Shown: positions 1 through 8,704 of the stretch, in pieces
How positions within the stretch are numbered: position 1 is the first letter of the stretch
How the letters are laid out: every line of letters starts with the position of its first letter
DNA from: a virus
Lineage: Duplodnaviria > Heunggongvirae > Uroviricota > Caudoviricetes
Direction: 5' to 3' (one strand)
IMG/VR virus record: IMGVR_UViG_2609460344_000011
Span: 1-8,704 of that record
DNA length: 8,704 nt
Program-made: the position numbers and the translations under genes
The notes under the pieces: model-generated
Told to the model about the DNA's origin: nothing
The model's input: only the letters and a program-made list of their open reading frames with translations
Database searches by the model: none

Positions 1-86
1 TTTCCACCCCTGTACGTCTCACCACCTATATGGTCGTGGAAAGCCTTGGTGGTGAGTTCATTGAATTCAACATAGGGGCTGTCACC

Positions 87-632
87 ATGACTACTCTCCC
101 AACCCAATCTCACCCTGAAATCACGATTATCAATGGTCGCGTTGTCACCACATCTCTTGCAGTAGCTAATTACTTTACTAAACGGCATGAGCGGGTTTTA
201 GATAGAATTAGAAACCTCGAATGTTCCGCTGAATTTACTGAACACAATTTTGTGTTAAGTGAATACACCGACGCATCAGGCCGCAAACTCCCTTGTTACC
301 AAATCACCCGCGACGGTTTTGCGTTTCTTGCCATGGGCTTCACTGGTAAACGTGCTGCCCGGTTCAAAGAGGCATACATAAATGCCTTTAACCAGATGGA
401 AAAACTGCTTTCAAAGCCATCCACGCTGAGCGATGCCGCAGATAACGCCAGCGTGCTTTACTCCCACCTGTCGGTAATCCACAAGGTCTGGCTGCAGCAG
501 CTTTATCCCATGTTGGCAAAAGCCGAATCCCCGCTGGCTGTAAGTCTGTATGACCGCATCAACGACGCGGCGCTACTGGCCAGTCTCATAAATTTGTCGC
601 TGAACCCTTCAGAGGTAAGGGGGCGTAAATGA
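87..632 (+). CDS. Rha-family phage regulatory protein (antirepressor-like)
   Basis: ATG at 87 preceded by GGGG (75-78). The ORF is open from 30, but the N-terminus MTTLPTQSHPEITIINGRVVTTSLAVANYFTKRHERVLDRIRN fits the Rha-domain pattern recalled from memory. Stop TGA 630-632 overlaps the next ATG. Confidence 0.65.
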   Translation: MTTLPTQSHPEITIINGRVVTTSLAVANYFTKRHERVLDRIRNLECSAEFTEHNFVLSEYTDASGRKLPCYQITRDGFAFLAMGFTGKRAARFKEAYINAFNQMEKLLSKPSTLSDAADNASVLYSHLSVIHKVWLQQLYPMLAKAESPLAVSLYDRINDAALLASLINLSLNPSEVRGRK

Positions 633-853
633 TCCGGAATATTTTCAAACGGTTTACCAATCATACTTTCTGTTGTCCTCGTCCGGGTCAGTGGTACACC
701 ACGCCTGCAGGGCATGTTCTACGTGTTAGCCTGGTTGACCGTGAATGTCAGAAGGTGATTTGTGAACCGCTGGGCCGTAATTACCGCGTCAGTATGCCGC
801 TTATAGCCTTTTGCTCCGGAAAAAACATGAAGCATCTCGGAGGTGCTGCATGA
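629..853 (+). CDS. hypothetical small protein (74 aa), translationally coupled between Rha and the O-like gene
   Basis: ATG 629 overlaps the upstream stop (ATGA). Purine-rich SD-like GAGGTAAGGGGG at 611-622. Its stop TGA 851-853 overlaps the next start at 850. No recognisable domain. Confidence 0.45.
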   Translation: MIRNIFKRFTNHTFCCPRPGQWYTTPAGHVLRVSLVDRECQKVICEPLGRNYRVSMPLIAFCSGKNMKHLGGAA

Positions 854-1668
854 GTATGGAGTTGATGGTTAAAGCGATGAAAATTCGAGTGGGAAATCCA
901 TTGCGAAAACTGGTTCTGATTAAGCTGGCTGATAATGCCAGCGATCAGGGTGAGTGCTGGCCCAGCTATCAGCATATCGCTGATCAGTGCGAGATTAGCA
1001 AACGTTCTGTGATGAATCATATTGCGGCCCTCTGTGAGTCCGGGCTGGTAAAAAAAGTCACCCGGAAAGGTGAAAAAGGTAACTCAAGTAATATCTATCT
1101 CCTTCATCTGGATGGTGCAGGAGATTCACTAGGGGGTAGTGCAAATAATTCACTATCTGGTGCAGCAAATTCACCAGGTAGTGCAGGAGTTGCACCAGGG
1201 GGTAGTGCAGGAGATTCACCCAGAACCAGTCACTCTTTTGAACCAGTCAAAGAACCAGTCAATGAACCAATAGCTGTTGGTGAATCTGCTGATGAGTCTG
1301 TGCGAGTTCGTTCAAACCGACCGGAATACTCTCCGGAGTTTGAGCAGGCATGGCTGGCATACCCCAAACGTGCTGGTGGCAATTCAAAATCTGCAGCCTT
1401 CAAAGCCTGGAAAGCCCGTTTGAATGAGGGGGTAAACCCCGAAACCATGCTGGAAGGTGTGAAACGCTACGCGGGCTGGGTATCTGCGATGGGTAACAGC
1501 GGCACACAATTTGTGAAACAGGCTGTCACGTTCTTTGGTCCGGATCGTCATTTCGAAGAATCCTGGGAAGTTCCTGCGGTATCTGCAGCCAGACGCGAGG
1601 ACCCGTACTTCAAAGCCAGTTACGACAACGTGGACTACAGCCAGATCCCGGAAGGATTCAGGGGGTGA
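850..1668 (+). CDS. lambdoid replication initiator O-like protein (N-terminal HTH domain, Gly/Ser/Ala linker, C-terminal domain)
   Basis: ATG 850 with GGAGG at 838-842. N-terminal segment LRKLVLIKLADNASDQGECWPSYQHIADQCEISKRSVMNHIAALCESGLV matches the helix-turn-helix typical of phage O-type replication protein N-termini. A low-complexity linker follows, encoded by iteron-like DNA repeats. Confidence 0.65.
   Translation: MSMELMVKAMKIRVGNPLRKLVLIKLADNASDQGECWPSYQHIADQCEISKRSVMNHIAALCESGLVKKVTRKGEKGNSSNIYLLHLDGAGDSLGGSANNSLSGAANSPGSAGVAPGGSAGDSPRTSHSFEPVKEPVNEPIAVGESADESVRVRSNRPEYSPEFEQAWLAYPKRAGGNSKSAAFKAWKARLNEGVNPETMLEGVKRYAGWVSAMGNSGTQFVKQAVTFFGPDRHFEESWEVPAVSAARREDPYFKASYDNVDYSQIPEGFRG
1111..1221. 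repeat. iteron-like direct repeats inside the O-like gene (candidate replication origin)
   Basis: GTGCAGGAGATTCAC occurs at 1115-1129 and 1205-1219. GGGGGTAGTGCA occurs at 1132-1143 and 1198-1209. ATTCAC recurs at 1124, 1148, 1169 and 1214, giving a roughly 21-24 bp period. Further degenerate copies (GGTAGTGCAGGAG at 1177) lie between. Confidence 0.4.
1240..1271. repeat. short tandem repeat GAACCAGTCAA x2 plus a partial copy, encoding EPVKEPVNEP
   Basis: GAACCAGTCAA at 1240-1250 and 1252-1262, then GAACCAA at 1265-1271, immediately 3' of the iteron-like block. Confidence 0.4.
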
Positions 1669-1670
1669 TC

Positions 1671-2159
1671 ATGAGTCTTTTGAATGAAGTTCAGAAATTC
1701 ATTGAAGCCCATCCGGGGTGTACTTCCGGAGACATTGCGGATGCTTTTGCAGGTTACTCACGGCAGCGCGTTCTGCAGTCAGCAAGCAAGTTACGTCAGA
1801 GTGGGCGTGTGGCTCACCGTTGTGAAGGAGATACACGCAGACATTTCCCGCGCCTGACTGAGAGAGCACAGGAGCCGGAACCACAACCAGTTCGTGAAAC
1901 CAGACCTGTGCGCAATTTCTGTGTCGGCACTAACGACCCGCAGGTGATTTTGTGCCTGACTCGCCAGGCGGAAGAACTGGAGTCCAGGGGCTTATTCCGT
2001 CGAGCTGCAACGGTGTGGATGGAGGCATTCCGTGAAAGCCACTCCCAGCCAGAACGAAACAATTTTCTGGCGCATCGTGAGCGGTGCTTACGGAAAAGCA
2101 GCAAGCGCGCTGCATCGGGTGAAGAGTGGTATCTGTCAGGGAATTACGTGGGGGCTTAA
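1671..2159 (+). CDS. PerC-like transcriptional regulator domain protein with N-terminal winged-helix-like region
   Basis: ATG 1671 with AGGGGG at 1659-1664; the upstream stop TGA 1666-1668 lies just before it. C-terminal segment ESRGLFRRAATVWMEAFRESHSQPERNNFLAHRERCLRK fits the recalled PerC/Pch signature (GLxRRAAxxW ... RRxxC). The N-terminal half looks like a small wHTH. Confidence 0.5.
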   Translation: MSLLNEVQKFIEAHPGCTSGDIADAFAGYSRQRVLQSASKLRQSGRVAHRCEGDTRRHFPRLTERAQEPEPQPVRETRPVRNFCVGTNDPQVILCLTRQAEELESRGLFRRAATVWMEAFRESHSQPERNNFLAHRERCLRKSSKRAASGEEWYLSGNYVGA

Positions 2160-2812
2160 TGAGTAATAAATATTGCCAGGCGCTGGTGGAGCTGCGGAAC
2201 AAACCAGCCCATGAACTGAAGGAAGTGGGCGATCAGTGGCGCACGCCGGACAACATTTTCTGGGGAATTAACACCCTGTTTGGCCCGTTTGTTCTGGATC
2301 TGTTCACTGATGGTGATAACGCCAAATGTGCCGCTTATTACACTGCGGAAGACAACGCGCTGGCGCATGACTGGTCTGAACGTCTTGCGGAGCTTAAAGG
2401 TGCTGCCTTTGGTAATCCCCCGTACAGCCGCGCCAGTCAGCATGAGGGGCAATACATCACCGGCATGCGTTACATCATGAAACATGCCAGTGCCATGCGT
2501 GATAAAGGCGGGCGCTATGTTTTCCTGATCAAAGCTGCCACCAGCGAAGTGTGGTGGCCGGAAGATGCAGATCATATTGCTTTTATTCGCGGGCGTATTG
2601 GTTTTGAACTGCCTGCCTGGTTTATCCCGAAAGACGAAAAGCAGGTGCCAACAGGTGCTTTCTTCGCTGGTGCTATTGCTGTTTTCGACAAGACCTGGAA
2701 GGGACCGGCAATCAGCTACATAGGGCGCGATGAACTTGAGGCATGTGGTGAGGCGTTTCTGGCGCAGGTTCGCCAGCAGGCGGAAAAACTGGTCAGGGAG
2801 ATGGCGGCATGA
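2159..2812 (+). CDS. phage Dam-family N6-adenine DNA methyltransferase
   Basis: ATG 2159 overlaps the upstream stop TAA 2157-2159, with a G-run at 2150-2154. Contains the GNPPY catalytic-type motif (N/DPPY class) and overall resemblance to phage N-6-adenine methyltransferases. Confidence 0.75.
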   Translation: MSNKYCQALVELRNKPAHELKEVGDQWRTPDNIFWGINTLFGPFVLDLFTDGDNAKCAAYYTAEDNALAHDWSERLAELKGAAFGNPPYSRASQHEGQYITGMRYIMKHASAMRDKGGRYVFLIKAATSEVWWPEDADHIAFIRGRIGFELPAWFIPKDEKQVPTGAFFAGAIAVFDKTWKGPAISYIGRDELEACGEAFLAQVRQQAEKLVREMAA

Positions 2813-3135
2813 CGACATTAACTCAATGCCAGCAGCAGGTGCTGGATATGCTGATTTCTTATCAGAAAGAACGTGGCTTCCCGCCAACCAATCAGGAGGT
2901 GGCAACCATGCTGGGATACCGTTCGGTGAATGCAGCGGTGGAGCATCTTCGCGCACTGGAGAAAAAAGGTGTCATCACGATAAAGCGTGGCGTGGCCCGG
3001 GGTATCACTCTTCATACCGCGGTGAAGGACGACGACAGCGAGGCGGTCGGGATTATCCGCGCCCTGCTTGCCGGTGAGGCAAACGCCAGGCTGCGTGCAG
3101 CCCACTGGTTACATGAGAGGGGCCTGAAAGTATGA
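2809..3135 (+). CDS. LexA N-terminal DNA-binding domain homologue lacking the S24 peptidase domain
   Basis: ATG 2809 overlaps the upstream stop (ATGA). Residues 1-68 align without gaps to the E. coli LexA N-terminal domain as recalled: LTxxQQxVxDxI ... GxPPTxxExAxxLGxRSxNAAxEHLxALxxKGVIxI ... RGIxL. The protein ends at 108 aa with no catalytic Ser/Lys domain. Confidence 0.75.
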   Translation: MTTLTQCQQQVLDMLISYQKERGFPPTNQEVATMLGYRSVNAAVEHLRALEKKGVITIKRGVARGITLHTAVKDDDSEAVGIIRALLAGEANARLRAAHWLHERGLKV

Positions 3136-3527
3136 AGCTAATACTGCCTTTTCCGCCCAGCGTGAACACGTACTGGCGACACCCCAACAAAGGGGCGTTT
3201 GCTGGTAAGAGCCTGATAAGCGCGGCGGGGCGAAAATTCCAGAGCGCGGCGTGTGCAGCAATAGTTGAGCAGTTACGTCGTCTGCCGAAACCAACGTCGG
3301 CACCTGCTTCAGTGGAGATCGTGTTGTTTCCTCCGGATAACCGGATCCGCGATCTGGACAACTATAACAAGGCGCTGTTTGACGCCCTGACCCACGCGGG
3401 TGTGTGGGAAGACGACAGTCAGGTGAAAAGAATGCTGGTGGAGTGGGGACCGGTTATCCCGGAGGGGAAGGTCGAGATCACTATCAGTAAGTACGAAAAA
3501 GCGAGTTGCAAATTAGCAACTCGGTAA
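3132..3527 (+). CDS. rusA: RusA-family Holliday junction resolvase (crossover junction endodeoxyribonuclease)
   Basis: ATG 3132 overlaps the upstream stop (ATGA), with GAGAGGGG upstream. N-terminal LILPFPPSVNTYWR and the acidic core DLDNYNKALFDALTHAGVWEDDSQV match RusA family signatures. Confidence 0.85.
   Translation: MKLILPFPPSVNTYWRHPNKGAFAGKSLISAAGRKFQSAACAAIVEQLRRLPKPTSAPASVEIVLFPPDNRIRDLDNYNKALFDALTHAGVWEDDSQVKRMLVEWGPVIPEGKVEITISKYEKASCKLATR
3502..3523. repeat. perfect 8-bp inverted repeat CGAGTTGC-N6-GCAACTCG at the 3' end of rusA
   Basis: CGAGTTGC (3502-3509) and GCAACTCG (3516-3523) are exact reverse complements. No U-tract follows, so it is more likely an operator or RNA stem than an intrinsic terminator. 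Confidence 0.35.
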
Positions 3528-3572
3528 CGGAATTGAGCAACACCCTAAATTTGGGTATTACCTCGTTAAAGA

Positions 3573-3592
3573 TACTGTATTTATGAACAGTG
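3573..3592. promoter_or_regulatory. LexA (SOS) box, consensus CTGT-N8-ACAG
   Basis: TACTGTATTTATGAACAGTG: CTGT at 3575-3578, an AT-rich 8-nt spacer, ACAG at 3587-3590. Candidate sigma70 elements TTGATA (3598-3603)-N17-TAAGTT (3621-3626) lie immediately downstream, before the KilA-N gene start at 3690. Confidence 0.7.
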
Positions 3593-3689
3593 TATCCTTG
3601 ATAACTATTAAAAATCGCAGTAAGTTCATCCTGCATCAACGAAAAGGGAGTGCAGTCCCGCTCGTGGATAAAAATTTGTGGAGAAACCA

Positions 3690-4505
3690 ATGAATCAGTT
3701 GCTTGTAATTGATGGCGTTTCTGTGCGTCAGTACTTCGAATCTAACTACTGTCTTAACGACCTTCAGAAAGCTGCTCTTCTTGCCGCTGGTGAGAATCGC
3801 TCCTCCCGTTCGCTGGAAGTTCACGAGTTTATGCGTCGTCCTGAAACGAAGGCTCTTGTGGAATTATTGGAAGAAGAAACTACGGGAGATTCCCGTAGTA
3901 TTCCTGTCATCACCATTCAGGGGCGCAATGGTGGGACGTATGTCTGTAAAGAGCTGGTCTATGCATATGCAATGTGGATCAGCCCGGCATTCAGCTTAAA
4001 AGTGATACGTACTTTTGATGCGCTTCATAATTCATCACCAGAAGAAACCACATCCGACAAAATTAAATCCGGGGTCATTCTGCTTGAATCAGCAGCAAAG
4101 ACTCTAAATCTGTCAAACTCCTCGAAACTTGGTGCATACCAGAAATTATCAAAGGTAGCTGGTCTTCCTGAACTTATGCCGATCTATGCCATTGATGCAC
4201 CTGCTGATGCGCCAGATGGTTCAAGCCGCCCTACGCTGTCGCTGAGTGCACTGCTGAAGCAGTATGGTATCCGCCTGACGGCTAATCAGGCATATCACCA
4301 GATGGCGAAGCTGGGGATCGTTGAACAACGCGAACGATACAGCCGTACCGCGATTAACAACATCAAAAAATTCTGGTCGCTGACCGCGAAAGGCTGCATG
4401 TTCGGCAAGAACATCACCAGTCCTGCAAATCCGCGCGAGACGCAGCCGCATTTCTTCGAATCCCGATTTCCTGAGCTGTTAAAGCTGCTCGATACCGTTC
4501 ATTGA
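3690..4505 (+). CDS. KilA-N domain protein, probable SOS-controlled antirepressor-like protein
   Basis: ATG 3690 with GGAG at 3680-3683. The N-terminal 110 aa (YCLNDLQKAALL ... IQGRNGGTYVCKELVYAYAMWISPAFSLKVIRTFDAL) fit the KilA-N domain pattern. Preceded by the LexA box. Confidence 0.7.
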   Translation: MNQLLVIDGVSVRQYFESNYCLNDLQKAALLAAGENRSSRSLEVHEFMRRPETKALVELLEEETTGDSRSIPVITIQGRNGGTYVCKELVYAYAMWISPAFSLKVIRTFDALHNSSPEETTSDKIKSGVILLESAAKTLNLSNSSKLGAYQKLSKVAGLPELMPIYAIDAPADAPDGSSRPTLSLSALLKQYGIRLTANQAYHQMAKLGIVEQRERYSRTAINNIKKFWSLTAKGCMFGKNITSPANPRETQPHFFESRFPELLKLLDTVH

Positions 4506-4506
4506 G

Positions 4507-5502
4507 GTGACTGTGAGAGCACTACTGACCCCTGAAATTGCCCCGCGTATGGGGATCGTATTGTTCAGGCCAGGTTCAGAGCTGATGCCCCTGTTTATGC
4601 AGGGGCGTGTCCTGCTGGAGCCTGAGCCGGAGCGTTATTCATCTTTCGCCAGTGGTGCCGTTCCGGCGGCATCACAACCGCTGGCGGATGATCCTGCCGT
4701 TCGGGCCGTGTTCCGCCATGAGGCAGTGATCCGTCGTGCTGGTGGCGTGGAATGTCTTGAAAGCTGGTTACTTCGTGAAAAAGGCTGCCAGTGGCCTCAT
4801 TCCGGATGGCACAGCGAGAACATGACCACAATGCGACACGCTCCGGGCGCAATCCGTCTGTGCTGGCACTGCGATAACCAGCTGCGCGATCAGTTCACGG
4901 AACGGCTGGAATCAATGGCAACGGATAACTGTGCCCGCTGGGTGTTGTCTGTTGTGCGTCGGGATCTCGGTTTTGATGACAGTCACGTTGTGACAATGCC
5001 GGAACTGTGCTGGTGGCTGATTCGTAATGACCTGGCGGATGCCTTACCGGAAAGTGCAGCCCGTAAGGCACTGAGATTACCGAAGCCTGTTGTGCCGTCT
5101 GTCACCCGGGAAAGTGACCTTGTGCCTTCGGTTCCTGCCACCAGCATCATCCAGGATAAAGCGAAAAAGGTGCTGGCGCTGAAAGTGGATCCGGAGTCGC
5201 CGGAGTCTTTTATGTTACGCCCCAAACGTCGCCGCTGGGTTAATGAAAAGTACACGCGCTGGGTTAAGACGCAGCCGTGTGCATGTTGTGGAAAGCCTGC
5301 TGATGATCCCCACCACCTGATAGGCCACGGTCAGGGGGGAATGGGTACAAAAGCGCATGACCTCTTCGTGCTGCCTTTGTGCAGAAAGCATCACGACGAG
5401 CTGCATGCGGATACCGTGGCATTTGAAGAGAAGTATGGCTCCCAGCTGGAGCTGATATTTCGTTTTATCGATCGTGCGCTGGCAATAGGCGTGCTGGCCT
5501 GA
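4507..5502 (+). CDS. DUF968-family protein with C-terminal HNH-like Cys/His motif
   Basis: C-terminal CACCGKPADDPHHLIGHGQGGMGTKAHDLFVLPLCRKHHDELH resembles the DUF968 family found next to Q in E. coli prophages. The start is uncertain: GTG 4507, GTG 4513 or ATG 4549, none with a strong SD. Confidence 0.6.
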   Translation: MTVRALLTPEIAPRMGIVLFRPGSELMPLFMQGRVLLEPEPERYSSFASGAVPAASQPLADDPAVRAVFRHEAVIRRAGGVECLESWLLREKGCQWPHSGWHSENMTTMRHAPGAIRLCWHCDNQLRDQFTERLESMATDNCARWVLSVVRRDLGFDDSHVVTMPELCWWLIRNDLADALPESAARKALRLPKPVVPSVTRESDLVPSVPATSIIQDKAKKVLALKVDPESPESFMLRPKRRRWVNEKYTRWVKTQPCACCGKPADDPHHLIGHGQGGMGTKAHDLFVLPLCRKHHDELHADTVAFEEKYGSQLELIFRFIDRALAIGVLA

Positions 5503-5519
5503 TTTTGTGGAGAAAGTTG

Positions 5520-5891
5520 ATGCGTGATATTCAAATGGTTCTTGAACGTTGGGGGGCATGGGTGGCAAATAATCACGAGGATGTGGAATGGTCATCTGTT
5601 GCTGCAGGTTTTAAGGGATTAATTCCTTCGAAAGTAAAATCCCGCCCGCAATGTAGCGATGACGATGGCCTGATCATTAGCTCTGCGATGACAGTTCTTA
5701 AGAAAAAGGAACCGTATCAATACGAATTACTGGAAATGTATTATGTGTATGGGGTTACATTACGGGTGTTGGGGGTAAAACTGGGGATATCACTTAATCA
5801 GGTTGTTATCAGACTGCAGAAAGCTGAAGGGTTTATTGACGGTTGTCTGGCAATGTTGGGGGTATCTTTAGAAATTGATTGTTACATATAG
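5520..5891 (+). CDS. Q-like late-gene antiterminator (small, about 123 aa, quuD-type)
   Basis: ATG 5520 with GGAGA at 5509-5513. The size, the position after rusA/DUF968 and before the tRNA cluster, and the N-terminal MRDIQMVLERWGAW match my recollection of small Q antiterminators of E. coli prophages. Family assignment is from memory, not a search. Confidence 0.55.
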   Translation: MRDIQMVLERWGAWVANNHEDVEWSSVAAGFKGLIPSKVKSRPQCSDDDGLIISSAMTVLKKKEPYQYELLEMYYVYGVTLRVLGVKLGISLNQVVIRLQKAEGFIDGCLAMLGVSLEIDCYI

Positions 5892-5930
5892 TAATAAATT
5901 CAATCAAAGTAAATAATCATATTTTATTAT

Positions 5931-5963
5931 AACCTCCTGATGATACCTGTTCATTGGGAGGTT
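5931..5963 (+). promoter_or_regulatory. inverted repeat AACCTCC-N19-GGAGGTT that can sequester the Shine-Dalgarno of the downstream gene
   Basis: AACCTCC (5931-5937) is the exact reverse complement of GGAGGTT (5957-5963). The right arm contains the SD (GGGAGG 5956-5961) of the ATG at 5967. Candidate -10 hexamers TATTAT/TATAAC at 5925-5933. Confidence 0.35.
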
Positions 5964-5966
5964 ATT

Positions 5967-6584
5967 ATGGATAAAAATGTAGAGCATGTATTAGTTGATG
6001 CAATTGAAAATAAGCAATCTTTAACAGTCGTTTACTTAGGAGGGAGCCAGCCCGGAACATTAAGGAATATTTCTCCGATTAGTATAAATGGGGATAAATT
6101 GCGGGCAAGATGCCATAGTTCTGGAGCAGTAAAGGTTTTCAATCTTGGGAAAATACAGTTACCCAGTGACTCCTGCGCGGTATCTATGCACTATGGAGAT
6201 TTAGAAGTTAAAGCTTATGAGACGATGCAGAGCGTAAATGACAACTTTCATGCCCTTTATCCTGAAGGACGATGGGGTGTTGATTTTAATGAGCATCGCT
6301 TTGCTTTATTTGATTTTTTTAAAAACGGGAAACGAAAAAAAACGGCATTTATGGCAATTGAGTTCAGGGAAAGAGATGAAGAGAAAATAATAACAGGTGT
6401 AACAATTGATATTGGTATATCTGGAACAGTGATTTCTGAGAAGTCCCGAATCCCAAAAAGACGACCATGGGTAGTGGTTGGTCCCGAACACGGAGAATAC
6501 AGTACTTATTCAACTTTGGACAAGGCTGCTACAGCGTTTTTTGAGAGGCTTTCGTTGATAGCATCCGGCCTGGAAGATAATTGA
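5967..6584 (+). CDS. hypothetical protein (205 aa), AT-rich accessory gene of unknown function
   Basis: ATG 5967 with a perfect GGGAGG SD at 5956-5961; an alternative ATG at 5940 has no SD. No family recognised. Markedly AT-rich relative to the upstream genes (by eye). Hand count: 11 of 12 Arg codons are AGA/AGG/CGA/CGG and 6 of 14 Ile codons are ATA. Confidence 0.6.
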   Translation: MDKNVEHVLVDAIENKQSLTVVYLGGSQPGTLRNISPISINGDKLRARCHSSGAVKVFNLGKIQLPSDSCAVSMHYGDLEVKAYETMQSVNDNFHALYPEGRWGVDFNEHRFALFDFFKNGKRKKTAFMAIEFRERDEEKIITGVTIDIGISGTVISEKSRIPKRRPWVVVGPEHGEYSTYSTLDKAATAFFERLSLIASGLEDN

Positions 6585-6716
6585 TTTTATGTTTGGTATT
6601 CAGAGTTCGCCGTGCTTAAGAAAGTCAAGATTCTAAAAATACTGAATGAGCTACTTGTGTTATAACAAAAATGCTATTAGTGTGTTAAGAGTGGTTACTT
6701 CGCCACACAACTTAAC

Positions 6717-6738
6717 CCCGCCACTGAGCGGGTTTTTT
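6717..6738 (+). terminator. intrinsic terminator
   Basis: Stem CCCGC (6717-6721) / GCGGG (6728-6732), loop CACTGA, followed by T6 (6733-6738). Confidence 0.6.
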
Positions 6739-6788
6739 GTACCTGTAAACTTGGTGCAGTACAGTAAACACGCTGGTGGTCGTGAATA

Positions 6789-6815
6789 CTGGCTTTTTAT
6801 CTTGCTGGCTTTTTA
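6789..6815. repeat. 11-bp perfect direct repeat CTGGCTTTTTA x2 (candidate regulator-binding site)
   Basis: CTGGCTTTTTA at 6789-6799 and 6805-6815, a 16-bp centre-to-centre spacing, about 50-75 bp upstream of the ATG at 6863. Confidence 0.35.
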
Positions 6816-6862
6816 GACAAGAGTTATTGGTATGTCACGTTAACCGGAAAGGGTAAAAAGAC

Positions 6863-7060
6863 ATGCTGAAACAGCAGGATATGACAGAAACCGCCAGAGT
6901 TGTGTTTGATGAATTAAGCGTTACCGAACCGGCGACAGTCGGGGAGATTGCGCAGAATACTTACCTTTCACGCGAACGCTGCCAGTTAATACTGACCCAG
7001 CTTGTTATGGCGGGTCTGGCAGACTATCAGTGCGGTTGTTACAGACGCCTTCAGTCCTGA
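6863..7060 (+). CDS. hypothetical small protein (65 aa), possible winged-helix (PapI/FaeA-like) DNA-binding protein
   Basis: ATG 6863 with a weak purine-rich stretch GGAAAGGG upstream. A helix-turn-helix-like segment ATVGEIAQNTYLSRERCQLILTQLVMAGL. Bracketed by intrinsic terminators. Assignment is tentative. Confidence 0.4.
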   Translation: MLKQQDMTETARVVFDELSVTEPATVGEIAQNTYLSRERCQLILTQLVMAGLADYQCGCYRRLQS

Positions 7061-7073
7061 AGGCTTTTTATTT
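7047..7073 (+). terminator. intrinsic terminator overlapping the stop codon of the 65-aa ORF
   Basis: Stem GCCTTCA (7047-7053) / TGAAGGC (7058-7064), loop GTCC, followed by TTTTTATTT (7065-7073). Confidence 0.55.
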
Positions 7074-7194
7074 GTGGTGAATGGGCGGCTGGTGGGGGGG
7101 CGACACCTGTCAGTCCTTTGCTTATGTGTTGATGATAATTTACCTTTTGGGGCTATAATTGAGCTAACCAATTGCTAATGAAAGTAAAATTATA

Positions 7195-7908
7195 ATGGCT
7201 GTTGTCTGTTCAGTTATCATGGTTTGCTCCCCAATTAATATTTTTCTTGAAAAGGATACGTTGTCACTTAAGCCAGGCTCAGTTGTTCTGGCCACCAAAT
7301 GCATCAGGGAGCTTTTCCTTATGCATTATGGCAAAGTTAAAATTGTCGATATAAGCGAATCCGTCGTAAGTCAATATCTGGAAAGTCAGCATAAGCTGAC
7401 GAGGACTCGTCTGACTGACATTCCGCTTTACCTGTTGCTGGAACCCAACAATCCTGCGTTGGCTGCGGCTTTAATTACCAGCCAGGGATTTTCCGGAGAG
7501 GCCACGGATATGTTTCTTATGATGGCCTGCCTGTCTCTGTTTGAAACAGATGAACGGATGTCATTGTTTTTAAGTGGATGTTTATCCAGCATAAGTGCCA
7601 AAGTCAGGGCGATAATTCAGACAGATATATCAGCAAGCTGGACGCTTGGTGCGATTGCTCTACAGTTGCATATGAGTGAGAGTTTGTTAAAGACAAAACT
7701 GAAAAATGAAGGGGGCATGTTCAGTCGCTTGTTGCTGGAAGAGCGGATGCGTGTTGCTGTAAATATGTTATGTTCCCGGCATGGATATGGACAGGCTATA
7801 GCAGAAAAATGCGGTTATTCAAGCAGGTCCTACTTTATTTCTGTATTTCACCGCTATTATGGCTTCCCGCCAGACAGATATGTATCCAGGCAAGGGCTTG
7901 ATTATTGA
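7195..7908 (+). CDS. AraC-family transcriptional regulator (AppY/GadX/YdeO/Rns-like)
   Basis: C-terminal AraC-type HTH (WTLGAIALQLHMSESLLKTKLKNEGGMFSRLLLEERMRVAVNMLCSRHGYGQAIAEKCGYSSRSYFISVFHRYYGFPP). N-terminus MAVVCSVIMVC resembles the AppY-like subgroup as recalled. AT-rich, with 5 AGG, 1 AGA and 5 ATA codons by hand count. No clear SD; an alternative start is ATG 7219. Confidence 0.7.
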   Translation: MAVVCSVIMVCSPINIFLEKDTLSLKPGSVVLATKCIRELFLMHYGKVKIVDISESVVSQYLESQHKLTRTRLTDIPLYLLLEPNNPALAAALITSQGFSGEATDMFLMMACLSLFETDERMSLFLSGCLSSISAKVRAIIQTDISASWTLGAIALQLHMSESLLKTKLKNEGGMFSRLLLEERMRVAVNMLCSRHGYGQAIAEKCGYSSRSYFISVFHRYYGFPPDRYVSRQGLDY

Positions 7909-7936
7909 TTTTCATCTGATTATTATTTTTTGGCTC

Positions 7937-8012
7937 GGCCCTTTAGCTCAGTGGTGAGAGCGAGCGACTCATAATCGCCAGGTCGCTGGTTCAAATCCAG
8001 CAAGGGCCACCA
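7937..8012 (+). tRNA. tRNA with anticodon CAU, most likely tRNA-Ile2 (lysidine, reads AUA); generic annotation would be tRNA-Met
   Basis: Hand-folded cloverleaf: acceptor GGCCCTT/AAGGGCC, D-arm GCTC/GAGC, anticodon loop CTCATAA, T-arm GCTGG/CCAGC with TTCAAAT loop, encoded CCA. Close to E. coli ileX as recalled. Confidence 0.8.
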
Positions 8013-8019
8013 TCACATA

Positions 8020-8096
8020 CCGCCATTAGCTCATCAGGAAAGAGCGCCAGCCTTCGAAGCTGGCTGCGCGGGGTTCAAGTCCCCGATGGCGGTCCA
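8020..8096 (+). tRNA. tRNA-Arg, anticodon UCG (reads CGA/CGG)
   Basis: Acceptor CCGCCAT/ATGGCGG, D-arm GCTC/GAGC, anticodon stem CCAGC/GCTGG with loop CTTCGAA, T-arm CGGGG/CCCCG with TTCAAGT loop, encoded CCA. The C1-G72 first pair is unusual but the fold is complete. Confidence 0.75.
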
Positions 8097-8109
8097 TTAT
8101 CTGCATCAT

Positions 8110-8186
8110 GCGTTGTTAGCTCAGCCGGACAGAGCAATTGCCTTCTAAGCAATCGGTCACTGGTTCGAATCCAGTACAACGCGCCA
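8110..8186 (+). tRNA. tRNA-Arg, anticodon UCU (reads AGA/AGG), argU-like
   Basis: Acceptor GCGTTGT/ACAACGC, D-arm GCTC/GAGC, anticodon stem ATTGC/GCAAT with loop CTTCTAA, T-arm ACTGG/CCAGT with TTCGAAT loop, encoded CCA. Confidence 0.8.
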
Positions 8187-8200
8187 CACTTATTTTCCCT

Positions 8201-8227
8201 GGCTCGCTTTTGCGGGCCTTTTTTTTT
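8201..8227 (+). terminator. intrinsic terminator downstream of the tRNA cluster
   Basis: Stem GGCTCGC (8201-8207) / GCGGGCC (8212-8218) with one G-U pair, loop TTTT, followed by T9 (8219-8227). Confidence 0.65.
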
Positions 8228-8439
8228 AAATGTCTCACAATTCAGGCGGTTGACTGTTGTCTGGTTTGCGGGGAGTTTGTTAAAAGAAACTGGCATGGTG
8301 AATCCCCCTGTGCGGAGGGGCAATCAGCAACTGGTGTTTTGTCACCGACCCTTATCCTTTCTGTGCGGGTTCAGGTGCTGATACTGAACTCACCGGGAGG
8401 CACCCGGCACCATGCAATGGCACATAGCGCCACTCTCCA

Positions 8440-8463
8440 GCCCCTCTCCGGAGGGGCTTTCTT
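8440..8463 (+). terminator. GC-rich hairpin with weak T-rich tail (possible attenuator or terminator)
   Basis: Stem GCCCCTC (8440-8446) / GAGGGGC (8451-8457), loop TCCG, followed by TTTCTT. Confidence 0.35.
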
Positions 8464-8469
8464 ATGGAC

Positions 8470-8497
8470 AAAAAAATCCCGCGCTGGGAGACGCGGG
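8470..8497 (-). terminator. candidate minus-strand intrinsic terminator
   Basis: Stem CCCGCG (8478-8483) / CGCGGG (8492-8497) with an 8-nt loop, preceded on the + strand by A7 (8470-8476). On the minus strand this reads hairpin then U7. Confidence 0.35.
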
Positions 8498-8691
8498 CGG
8501 CAAGGAATAAACAACAAAACGTGAAGTAATATTTCAGTTGGCGAATAATATCCGACAGTAATCACTCTGCGCAATAGCGCGGCCTTTTTCGTATTGCGGG
8601 CTGTTGTCTATCTTCTGCCATTATCCTGTAACTTCCGGACTTCAGCCCGCTCCTCATTTTACTCACAATATTATCCAGGCCGGGAGGATTC

Positions 8692-8704
8692 ATGGCATTT
8701 AAAC
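8692..8704 (+). CDS. 5' end of an unidentified gene running out of the window (begins MAFK)
   Basis: ATG 8692 preceded by GGGAGG at 8681-8686 with 5-nt spacing. Only 4 codons are visible. Confidence 0.3.

Follow-up and report, generated by a model that had tools for sequence, protein, structure and literature searches.

Backbone terminators and junctional cargo: a proposed map of the Q-to-lysis slot in a toxin-free, Stx-type Escherichia coli prophage

When several accessory genes and several intrinsic terminators lie between an antiterminator gene and the lysis genes of a prophage, to which parts do the terminators belong? The question is raised by an 8,704-nt stretch of viral DNA (IMG/VR record IMGVR_UViG_2609460344_000011, positions 1 to 8,704; the window below), in which the gene for the Q antiterminator is followed by a slot at 5892-8704 leading to the late genes. 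A first-pass annotation had read this slot as a row of exchangeable units (a 205-amino acid (aa) gene, a 65-aa gene, and an AraC-like gene with tRNAs), each insulated by a terminator of its own. That late operons with several terminators are read by antitermination is textbook phage biology, and most parts of the window are already known. What is new here is a corrected map, which gives the terminators to the backbone, puts cargo after them and places the first cargo gene outside Q control. The slot is likely to be the known mosaic Q-to-lysis "late leader" of a Shiga toxin phage (Stx)-type, toxin-free E. coli prophage, built of conserved terminator-ended backbone blocks with cargo at their junctions. 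Shiga toxin genes of pathogenic E. coli sit in a slot of this kind, and a map separating backbone from cargo bears on how accessory genes are gained and on when they are expressed, be it in the lysogen, with the early genes, or only after Q acts.

The window is the right arm of a lambdoid prophage, as judged from its open reading frames (ORFs), from domain matches and from a 99.3% identical prophage of E. coli cM8a (L001 of the loci fetched for comparison). E. coli S88 (NC_011742) and MS7163 are carriers too. Up to Q the gene order is Rha, a PerC-like regulator, an adenine methylase, a LexA-like protein, RusA, KilA-N, DUF968 and Q (5520-5891); 3' of Q follow the 205-aa gene, which encodes a WYL-domain protein, the 65-aa gene, the AraC-type gene, the tRNA genes ileZ, argN and argO, and the start of nanS-p at 8693. 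The annotated order in the cM8a prophage is Q-WYL-65aa-AraC-tRNA-nanS-holin-lysozyme, with holin, lysozyme and Rz-like genes after nanS. No toxin gene is present in the window, the prophage being stx-negative and Stx-phage-like, and stx2 occupies the equivalent slot in phiSTEC1575-Stx2k, Stx2_14040, P27 and Sakai Sp5. The genes and main terminators with which the argument deals are these:

5520-5891, plus strand: Q antiterminator gene of the Q21/933W-type family, 123 aa when counted from the annotated ATG (a TTG at 5505 opens the mechanical ORF)
5967-6584, plus strand: 205-aa WYL gene, cargo at the Q/pR' junction, in a cassette of about 5892-6654
6717-6738, plus strand: T1, CCCGC-CACTGA-GCGGG followed by T6, the predicted promoter-proximal intrinsic terminator of the leader made from the late promoter pR', at about +28 to +49
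6863-7060, plus strand: 65-aa backbone gene, the first ORF past pR' and T1
7047-7073, plus strand: T2, GCCTTCA-GTCC-TGAAGGC followed by T5AT3, overlapping the stop codon of the 65-aa ORF and ending the 65-aa block
7195-7908, plus strand: gene for an AraC-family regulator of the prophage PsrA/PsrB type (YdeO/GadX-like), cargo alternating with a DNA methylase
7937-8186, plus strand: tRNA genes ileZ (CAT), argN (TCG) and argO (TCT), by ARAGORN and Rfam tRNA matches
8201-8227, plus strand: T3, GGCTCGC-TTTT-GCGGGCC followed by T9, 15 nt past the third tRNA and ending the tRNA block
8264-8469, plus strand: gene for the small RNA (sRNA) STnc100, Rfam RF02076 (143.2 bits, the gathering score being 47; E 6.5e-33; match over model positions 1-206 of 206)
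8439-8458, plus strand: T4, the 3' hairpin of STnc100, with a weak T-rich tail TTCTTAT to about 8465 (-19.6 kcal/mol, z = -3.9)
8693-8704, plus strand: start of nanS-p, a SASA-family 9-O-acetyl esterase gene, from the annotation of L001 and L003

The terminators are a property of backbone blocks, with cargo inserted just after those blocks, and the cargo units are not each terminator-insulated. Four blocks would make up the backbone: pR' and its leader, closed by T1; the 65-aa gene, closed by T2; ileZ-argN-argO, closed by T3; and STnc100 with its own terminator, with nanS-p and the lysis genes next. Cargo would then enter at three junctions, namely Q/pR' (the WYL gene here), after T2 (AraC here, a DNA methylase elsewhere) and after T3 (empty here, stx2AB or terB-DUF3927 elsewhere). 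By blastn of the window against nine related loci, 6666-7096/7131 is a single conserved block that comprises T1, the 65-aa gene and T2, and in blastn and alignments of related loci T1 keeps its place in the pR'/65-aa block where the WYL gene is missing or another gene stands in its stead. The pR'/T1/65-aa/T2 block starts 20 nt past the Q stop codon in the Stx2a phage Stx2_14040 (L003) and in PhiR5_1 (L006), and the 205-aa gene is therefore an insertion between Q and the block. Homology to methylase-carrying loci stops 23-58 nt downstream of T2, and blastn sets the limits of the AraC cassette at 7096/7131 on the left and 7920/7933 on the right, between which the methylase takes its place (L003, L005, L007 and L017-L019). 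The tRNA block, 7933-8224, includes T3; stx2AB or terB-DUF3927 lies directly past the T3 T-tract in L002, L003, L004, L007, L010 and L011; and 8231-8704 is the block of STnc100 and the sequence upstream of nanS. The terminator scan found none belonging to the cargo itself, either in 6585-6654 or in the interval that runs from the AraC stop codon to ileZ, and the AraC cassette has a promoter-like site and no terminator of its own.

The first-pass annotation was right that plus-strand terminators lie at exactly 6717-6738, 7047-7073 and 8201-8227, as both the sequence and the scan confirm, and the genes that it named are all present (205-aa, 5967-6584; 65-aa, 6863-7060; AraC-type, 7195-7908; three tRNAs). 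It went astray in giving T1 to the 205-aa gene, since T1 travels with the pR' leader and the 65-aa block. That every unit is closed by a terminator stands for the 65-aa gene (T2) and the tRNA block (T3) and falls for the AraC and WYL cargo, neither of which has one of its own; the 65-aa gene, counted there as a cargo unit, is backbone, its block being present in 2,967 genomes. Its inventory of units and terminators also missed STnc100 with T4, the hairpins at 8567-8590 and (weak) 6772-6798, and a minus-strand terminator at 8497-8478.

How far the parts move apart from one another was followed in 5,426 complete E. coli genomes, with these counts:

5570-5891, variable part of the window Q allele: 52 genomes, at least 99% identity
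5892-6654, WYL cassette: 52 genomes, all at least 99% identity
6655-7096, pR'/65-aa block: 2,967 genomes
7132-7932, AraC cassette: 726 genomes
8228-8692, STnc100 block: 2,910 genomes
5505-8704, whole arrangement, at least 80% covered: 27 genomes

On these counts the slot parts assort independently. Downstream of one and the same Q-WYL module there may follow AraC-tRNA-STnc100-nanS, that arrangement plus terB, methylase-tRNA, or methylase and then holin, and this variation supports modular exchange. The proposal of an exchangeable, modular slot thus holds up, with parts in 52, 2,967, 726 and 2,910 of the genomes and alternative genes at the same junctions; the comparison across related prophages that had been suggested as its check finds slot content that varies rather than one that is invariant. 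Composition also sets the cargo apart, GC being 0.34-0.42 across the WYL cassette and 0.41-0.46 across AraC, against 0.52-0.59 in the early region. Minimal slots are seen in E. coli 97.3, TF5 and 219 (L017-L019), where Q-WYL-65/67aa-methylase is followed by holin and there are no tRNAs, STnc100 or nanS-p.

Where, then, does late transcription begin? For the window prophage we infer from sequence where pR' starts, which promoters there are and how efficient each terminator is, and we propose the following elements for the promoter and the start of its leader:

6655-6690, plus strand: putative pR', with -35 TTGTGT (6655-6660), -10 TAGTGT (6678-6683) and start near A6690
6658-6667, plus strand: palindrome TGTTATAACA, candidate Q-binding element at about -33 to -24
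6686-6706, plus strand: leader motif TAAGAGTGGTTACTTCGCCAC across the start site, with the candidate sigma-dependent pause element TACTTC and a small 5' RNA hairpin from +2 to +17 (fold)
6772-6798, plus strand: weak second leader hairpin, terminator-like in the scan (-7.4 kcal/mol, z = -0.9), inside the conserved block

The placement leans on Sakai Sp5, in which the pR' start (by differential RNA sequencing) and tR' were mapped 258 nt apart (PMC7547250). In the current Sakai record the two lie at L010:1046 and L010:1303, the start being the A in GATAAGAGTGG, 7 nt past TATCAT; the RNase E site GU/AUU at +173 coincides with 1217-1221 and the T-run of tR' ends at 1303. One coordinate shift of 142 nt fits all three published landmarks (the start, the RNase E site and the tR' 3' end at +258), and we take it to be the shift between versions v1 and v2 of the Sakai record, from the old stx2A coordinate. 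Window 6683-6743 aligns as homologous to the Sp5 pR' start region, and by this homology to a mapped start the -35, the -10, the start near 6690 and T1 at about +28 to +49 are placed. The motif TAAGAGTGGTTA occurs in a single copy in the window and once in each of 13 of 13 fetched loci with a PF06530-type Q, and it is absent from both of the fetched loci (2/2) with other antiterminators. Scanning the IMG/VR viral contigs, which were not dereplicated, gave 120 with the motif, a Q gene being found as well in 113. In 42 of 45 distinct upstream variants the motif is preceded, at a distance of 2 nt, by a TAnnnT hexamer amid an otherwise variable background, and the -10-like TACTTC, the candidate pause element, falls at about +8 to +13.

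The Q protein itself matches Pfam PF06530 (E 1.5e-47) and the Q21 structures 6P18/6JNX (E 5e-10), is annotated WP_001204814 in the cM8a prophage, and is 52-58% identical to the Q of the Stx2a phage L003, P27 and Sakai Sp5/933W (Sp5 Q, 56%). The palindrome upstream of the start, at about -33 to -24, differs in type between prophages, and its type tracks the Q allele cluster at any distance between Q and the motif, even where 0.5-3 kb of cargo lies between them: GCGTACGC, GCGGTCCGC, TTTACGATCGTAAA and GGAATTCC go with other Q alleles and TGTTATAACA with that of the window. Across the 113 IMG/VR contigs the purity of this association is 0.82, compared with 0.35 when permuted; the palindrome was also compared in the fetched loci L003, L007, L008, L010 and L012. 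Since it tracks the Q allele, the palindrome is a candidate Q-binding element. The start-site motif TAAGAGTGGTTAC together with the allele-specific palindrome offers a simple marker for locating pR' in unmapped prophages.

Several points weigh against this placement of pR' and against the roles given to its elements. After dereplication the palindrome/Q-allele association is weaker (purity 0.745, against 0.51 permuted), the link could stem from physical linkage rather than from binding specificity, and the known Q21 binding element is a direct repeat, not a palindrome. The pR' hexamers of the window, TTGTGT and TAGTGT, are weak, with 3/6 matches each, and a consensus promoter scan did not call the window pR'. 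In Sp5, moreover, a T1-type hairpin that is nearly identical is found at about +24 to +52, and yet the 258-nt transcript of that phage reaches the mapped tR', so such hairpins leak and would form an incomplete block without Q. That Sp5 hairpin (L010 1069-1097) looks like a canonical terminator, with an 8-bp stem and T7; lying, on the mapped pR' transcript, upstream of the published tR' (+258), it is unmentioned by Sy et al. 2020 (PMC7547250).

The alternative that survives best would put pR' directly after Q, at 5892-5966, and make of the WYL gene, the 65-aa gene and AraC with the tRNAs three moron units within the Q-antiterminated transcript, each with its terminator. In lambda, phage 21 and Sp5 the late promoter does directly follow Q, the 75 nt that separate Q from the WYL gene are rich in AT and contain -10-like hexamers, and T1 is the first terminator that transcription from the WYL gene would meet. 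The conserved start-site motif, however, has no copy in that spacer, whose sole plus-strand promoter-like call overlaps the start codon and would start transcription inside the ORF; the motif, TAnnnT and the Q-allele-tracking palindrome are all found at 6655-6706, and T1 remains with the 65-aa block where the WYL gene is gone. A main pR' directly after Q was rejected on these grounds, and we hold it quite unlikely.

With pR' placed instead just upstream of T1, the WYL gene lies upstream of the start near 6690 and hence outside the Q-antiterminated transcript, so that it should escape Q control. How the slot would work can be proposed from the Q21 and Stx-phage paradigms. In the lysogen pR' would fire constitutively, most transcripts ending at T1 or at later terminators, while the AraC gene, the tRNAs and STnc100 would be expressed from local promoters. 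Upon induction Q would load at the pR' leader, and RNA polymerase would run past T1, T2, T3 and the terminators further on to reach nanS-p and the lysis genes. Being upstream of pR' and not under Q, the WYL gene would be expressed as part of the early operon, together with Q, or from a weak promoter of its own, and transcripts arriving from it would likewise be stopped by T1. The expectation in the first-pass annotation that Q would carry transcription through every unit thus fits by analogy what is published for Stx phages (PMC7547250) and seems not to extend to the WYL gene. Its further idea, independent expression of the units in the lysogen, would likewise be in keeping with published Stx phages and with psrA/psrB (PMC7547250, PMC10877973), and AraC has a promoter-like site; no promoter was found for the WYL or 65-aa genes. 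The corrected map predicts different regulation for inserts at Q/pR' and for inserts after the tRNA terminator, such as stx.

The Q/pR' junction appears from the contigs to be a frequent cargo site. The distance from the Q stop codon to the motif is at most 40 nt in 33 of the 113 contigs and above 500 nt in the other 80, with 39 distinct insert lengths, and in the distance class of the window (794 nt) the WYL gene is always present. Elsewhere the junction is occupied by a CAAX protease (Sakai Sp4), by the 409-aa L22 (P27) or by three minus-strand genes (FORC_069). Heterogeneity of the Q-to-stx "pR' region" has already been published for Stx phages (PMC6266700), and a Q/pR' cargo site with an allele-matched palindrome is a modest addition to it.

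Are T1, T2 and T3 terminators at all? As in a Q-type late cassette, intrinsic terminators (T1-T5, plus strand) are present between pR' and the late genes, and the scan gives 12 terminator-like sites in the slot (5892-8704) against 3.1±1.9 in shuffles. Folded in 46-nt stretches, T1, T2 and T3 have minimum free energies of -9.5, -11.2 and -13.8 kcal/mol and z scores against shuffles of -1.35, -1.67 and -3.9, so that only T3 of the three is individually unusual. Conservation is stronger evidence for the terminators than these folding scores. In the fetched loci carrying each block the stems are the same bar single-base changes and the loops are variable: the T2 stem is identical in 11 sequences save for one base change in L011, its loop varying, and the T3 stem is essentially conserved in 12, with divergence beginning right after the T-run. 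At the T1 position a hairpin with a T-run is found in 63 of 65 distinct leader variants among phage contigs, the T-tract starting at +43 to +59, and in a few variants a non-homologous hairpin replaces T1 at the same position. On the 63 of 65 leaders T1 is read as a probably selected, promoter-proximal terminator of the late leader.

Might the locus simply be a relic? Many lambdoid prophages of E. coli are defective, the window has weak -35 and -10 hexamers, and the Q-WYL copies are all (52/52) at least 99% identical, so that selection is unreadable from them; one could accordingly picture a decayed prophage in which the pR'-like sequence and the hairpins are functionless and the mosaic is due to neutral recombination only. 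Against decay stand intact Q, 65-aa and AraC genes, intact tRNAs and, further downstream, intact lysis genes, as well as hairpin stems and a TAnnnT hexamer that are kept amid varying bases, quite apart from the unrelated hairpins that stand in for T1, all of which makes decay very unlikely. That the hairpin and T-run sites are chance matches or ordinary gene 3' ends unrelated to antitermination is hardly credible, for while T1 and T2 singly are not significant against shuffles, the sites are fourfold enriched in the slot, hold fixed positions that are conserved across phage contigs, and occupy the interval from Q to the lysis genes, just as in Stx phages studied by experiment (PMC7547250).

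The conserved backbone terminator T1 would also give a short RNA. The predicted pR'-to-T1 RNA, 6690-6738 on the plus strand and about 48 nt long, has a 5' hairpin, the single-stranded ACAACUUAA, a terminator hairpin and a U-tail, and its sequence is conserved across Q alleles. HnrS, a published sRNA (PMC13502914), was considered as the identity of this leader RNA and dropped, the paper giving no sequence or position that ties it to the locus.

The 205-aa protein has an N-terminal WYL domain, whose barrel begins at residue 19 with one helix before it, and a C-terminal alpha/beta domain without a confident match. A domain search matched no helix-turn-helix (HTH) family, hence no HTH or winged-helix DNA-binding domain, in the protein; a sequence search against solved structures gave no match, nor did the cassette DNA in searches, blastn included, of 50,697 phage records. 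The family numbers about 490 clusters by exhaustive protein search, where a word-index search gave just 9. As a component of a defence system it was not retained, the PADLOC matches to CRISPR-associated signalling models being weak (E 0.001-0.007) and insufficient. A promoter scan called no usable promoter for the gene. Within its leader there is one marked structure:

5923-5969, plus strand: 5'-untranslated region (5'-UTR) hairpin of about 15 bp, pairing the GGGAGG ribosome-binding site and the start region of the WYL gene

The fold of 5892-5990 has -23.4 kcal/mol (z = -2.96), and the modelled hairpin suggests translational control; all copies are at least 99% identical. The tie between the WYL gene and its Q allele is tight: all 14 of 14 sequences with this allele (IMG/VR contigs, the window and two fetched loci) carry the cassette, and neither the allele without the cassette nor the reverse was seen in the 5,426 genomes or the contig analysis. 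A wider reading joins three proposals: that 933W/21-type phages commonly use Q/pR' as a cargo position in its own right, with genes that are expressed early and escape Q; that the HTH-less WYL protein, found with one Q allele only (52/52 genomes), could be a modulator sensing a ligand or single-stranded DNA, for instance as a decoy directed at host defence systems under WYL control, or could modulate the late switch; and that the RNA of about 48 nt from pR' to T1 has the architecture of an Hfq-binding sRNA and is constitutive in lysogens. Taken jointly this is unlikely to be correct. The WYL regulators DriD, CapW, BrxR and PafBC differ from the window protein, which has no winged helix, is phage-borne and goes with one Q allele.

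In phage contigs the 65-aa gene, downstream of T1, keeps a constant spacing of +174 to +177 from the motif; it is backbone, not cargo. Its product matches phrog_331 (E 6e-37) and, weakly, TrmB (E 0.003) and is probably a winged helix; a promoter scan found no promoter of its own. The AraC cassette after T2 begins with a clear candidate promoter:

7132-7159, plus strand: promoter-like site ATGATA-16-TATAAT at the left edge of the AraC cassette, 10/12 matches, the best plus-strand site in the slot

The AraC protein is identical at 215 of 237 residues to Sakai ECs_1087, named psrA (PMC13502914), and at 234 of 237 to a second O157:H7 copy, which is probably PsrB. PsrA and PsrB share 90% identity, and both regulate GAD acid resistance and type III secretion (PMC10877973). 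A regulator of this type would be expected to activate gadE/hdeA and to repress type III secretion.

Further right the slot contains the following:

7898-7926, plus strand: promoter-like site just upstream of the tRNAs (promoter scan)
8567-8590, plus strand: hairpin and T-run upstream of nanS-p (terminator scan)
8497-8478, minus strand: strong terminator facing the STnc100 3' end, CCCGCGTCTCCCAGCGCGGG followed by AT7 (scan)

A tRNA promoter has been reported in Sp5 (PMC7547250). STnc100 starts 37 nt past T3 in the window, and in Stx2 phages it is reported to lie 75 nt downstream of stx2 (PMC12370729).

Set beside known systems, the window is closest in plan to two Sakai prophages. Sp5/933W shares with it the Q family, the homologous pR' start region, the T1-type hairpin, ileZ-argN-argO with the same terminator, and the STnc100 and nanS-p block downstream. 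In Sp5, however, pR' lies 17 nt past Q with no gene between, whereas in the window some 765 nt and the WYL gene intervene; Sp5 has the 258-nt StxS leader in place of the 65-aa gene, a methylase remnant and no AraC gene, and stx2AB past the tRNA terminator. Sp4 has an architecture identical to that of the window, in the order ECs_1084 (Q), ECs_1085 (CAAX protease), ECs_1086, ECs_1087 (psrA), tRNAs and ECs_1088, and its DNA is 93.6% identical from 6683 (the pR' -10) to 8704 (nanS-p), T1, T2, AraC, the tRNAs, T3 and STnc100 included; it differs in carrying another Q allele (71 of 119 aligned residues identical) and at Q/pR' a CAAX/CPBP protease instead of WYL. The Q21 cassette resembles the window in its homologous Q (E 5e-10 to 6P18), in the same order of parts and in a terminator close to the promoter, and differs in its direct-repeat binding element, the window having a candidate palindrome and 765 nt with a gene between Q and pR'.

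A moron is said, in the definition of Hendrix and Juhala, to be a promoter-gene-terminator unit inserted between backbone genes. The cargo of the window is like morons in its presence/absence polymorphism, in a GC below that of the flanks, and in accessory functions expressed in the lysogen as known for PsrA/PsrB; unlike morons, neither cargo gene has a terminator of its own, and the WYL gene has no convincing promoter.

Outside the slot, the early region carries on the plus strand at 1665-2159 and 2126-3527 a PerC-family regulator (yfdN-like), a phage N6-adenine methyltransferase, a LexA-family protein and RusA, by the cM8a annotation. At the other end a minus-strand promoter-like site lies at 8670-8698, about 170 nt to the right of the minus-strand terminator at 8478-8497, and between them the two could delimit an RNA of about 185 nt on the minus strand, upstream of nanS-p.

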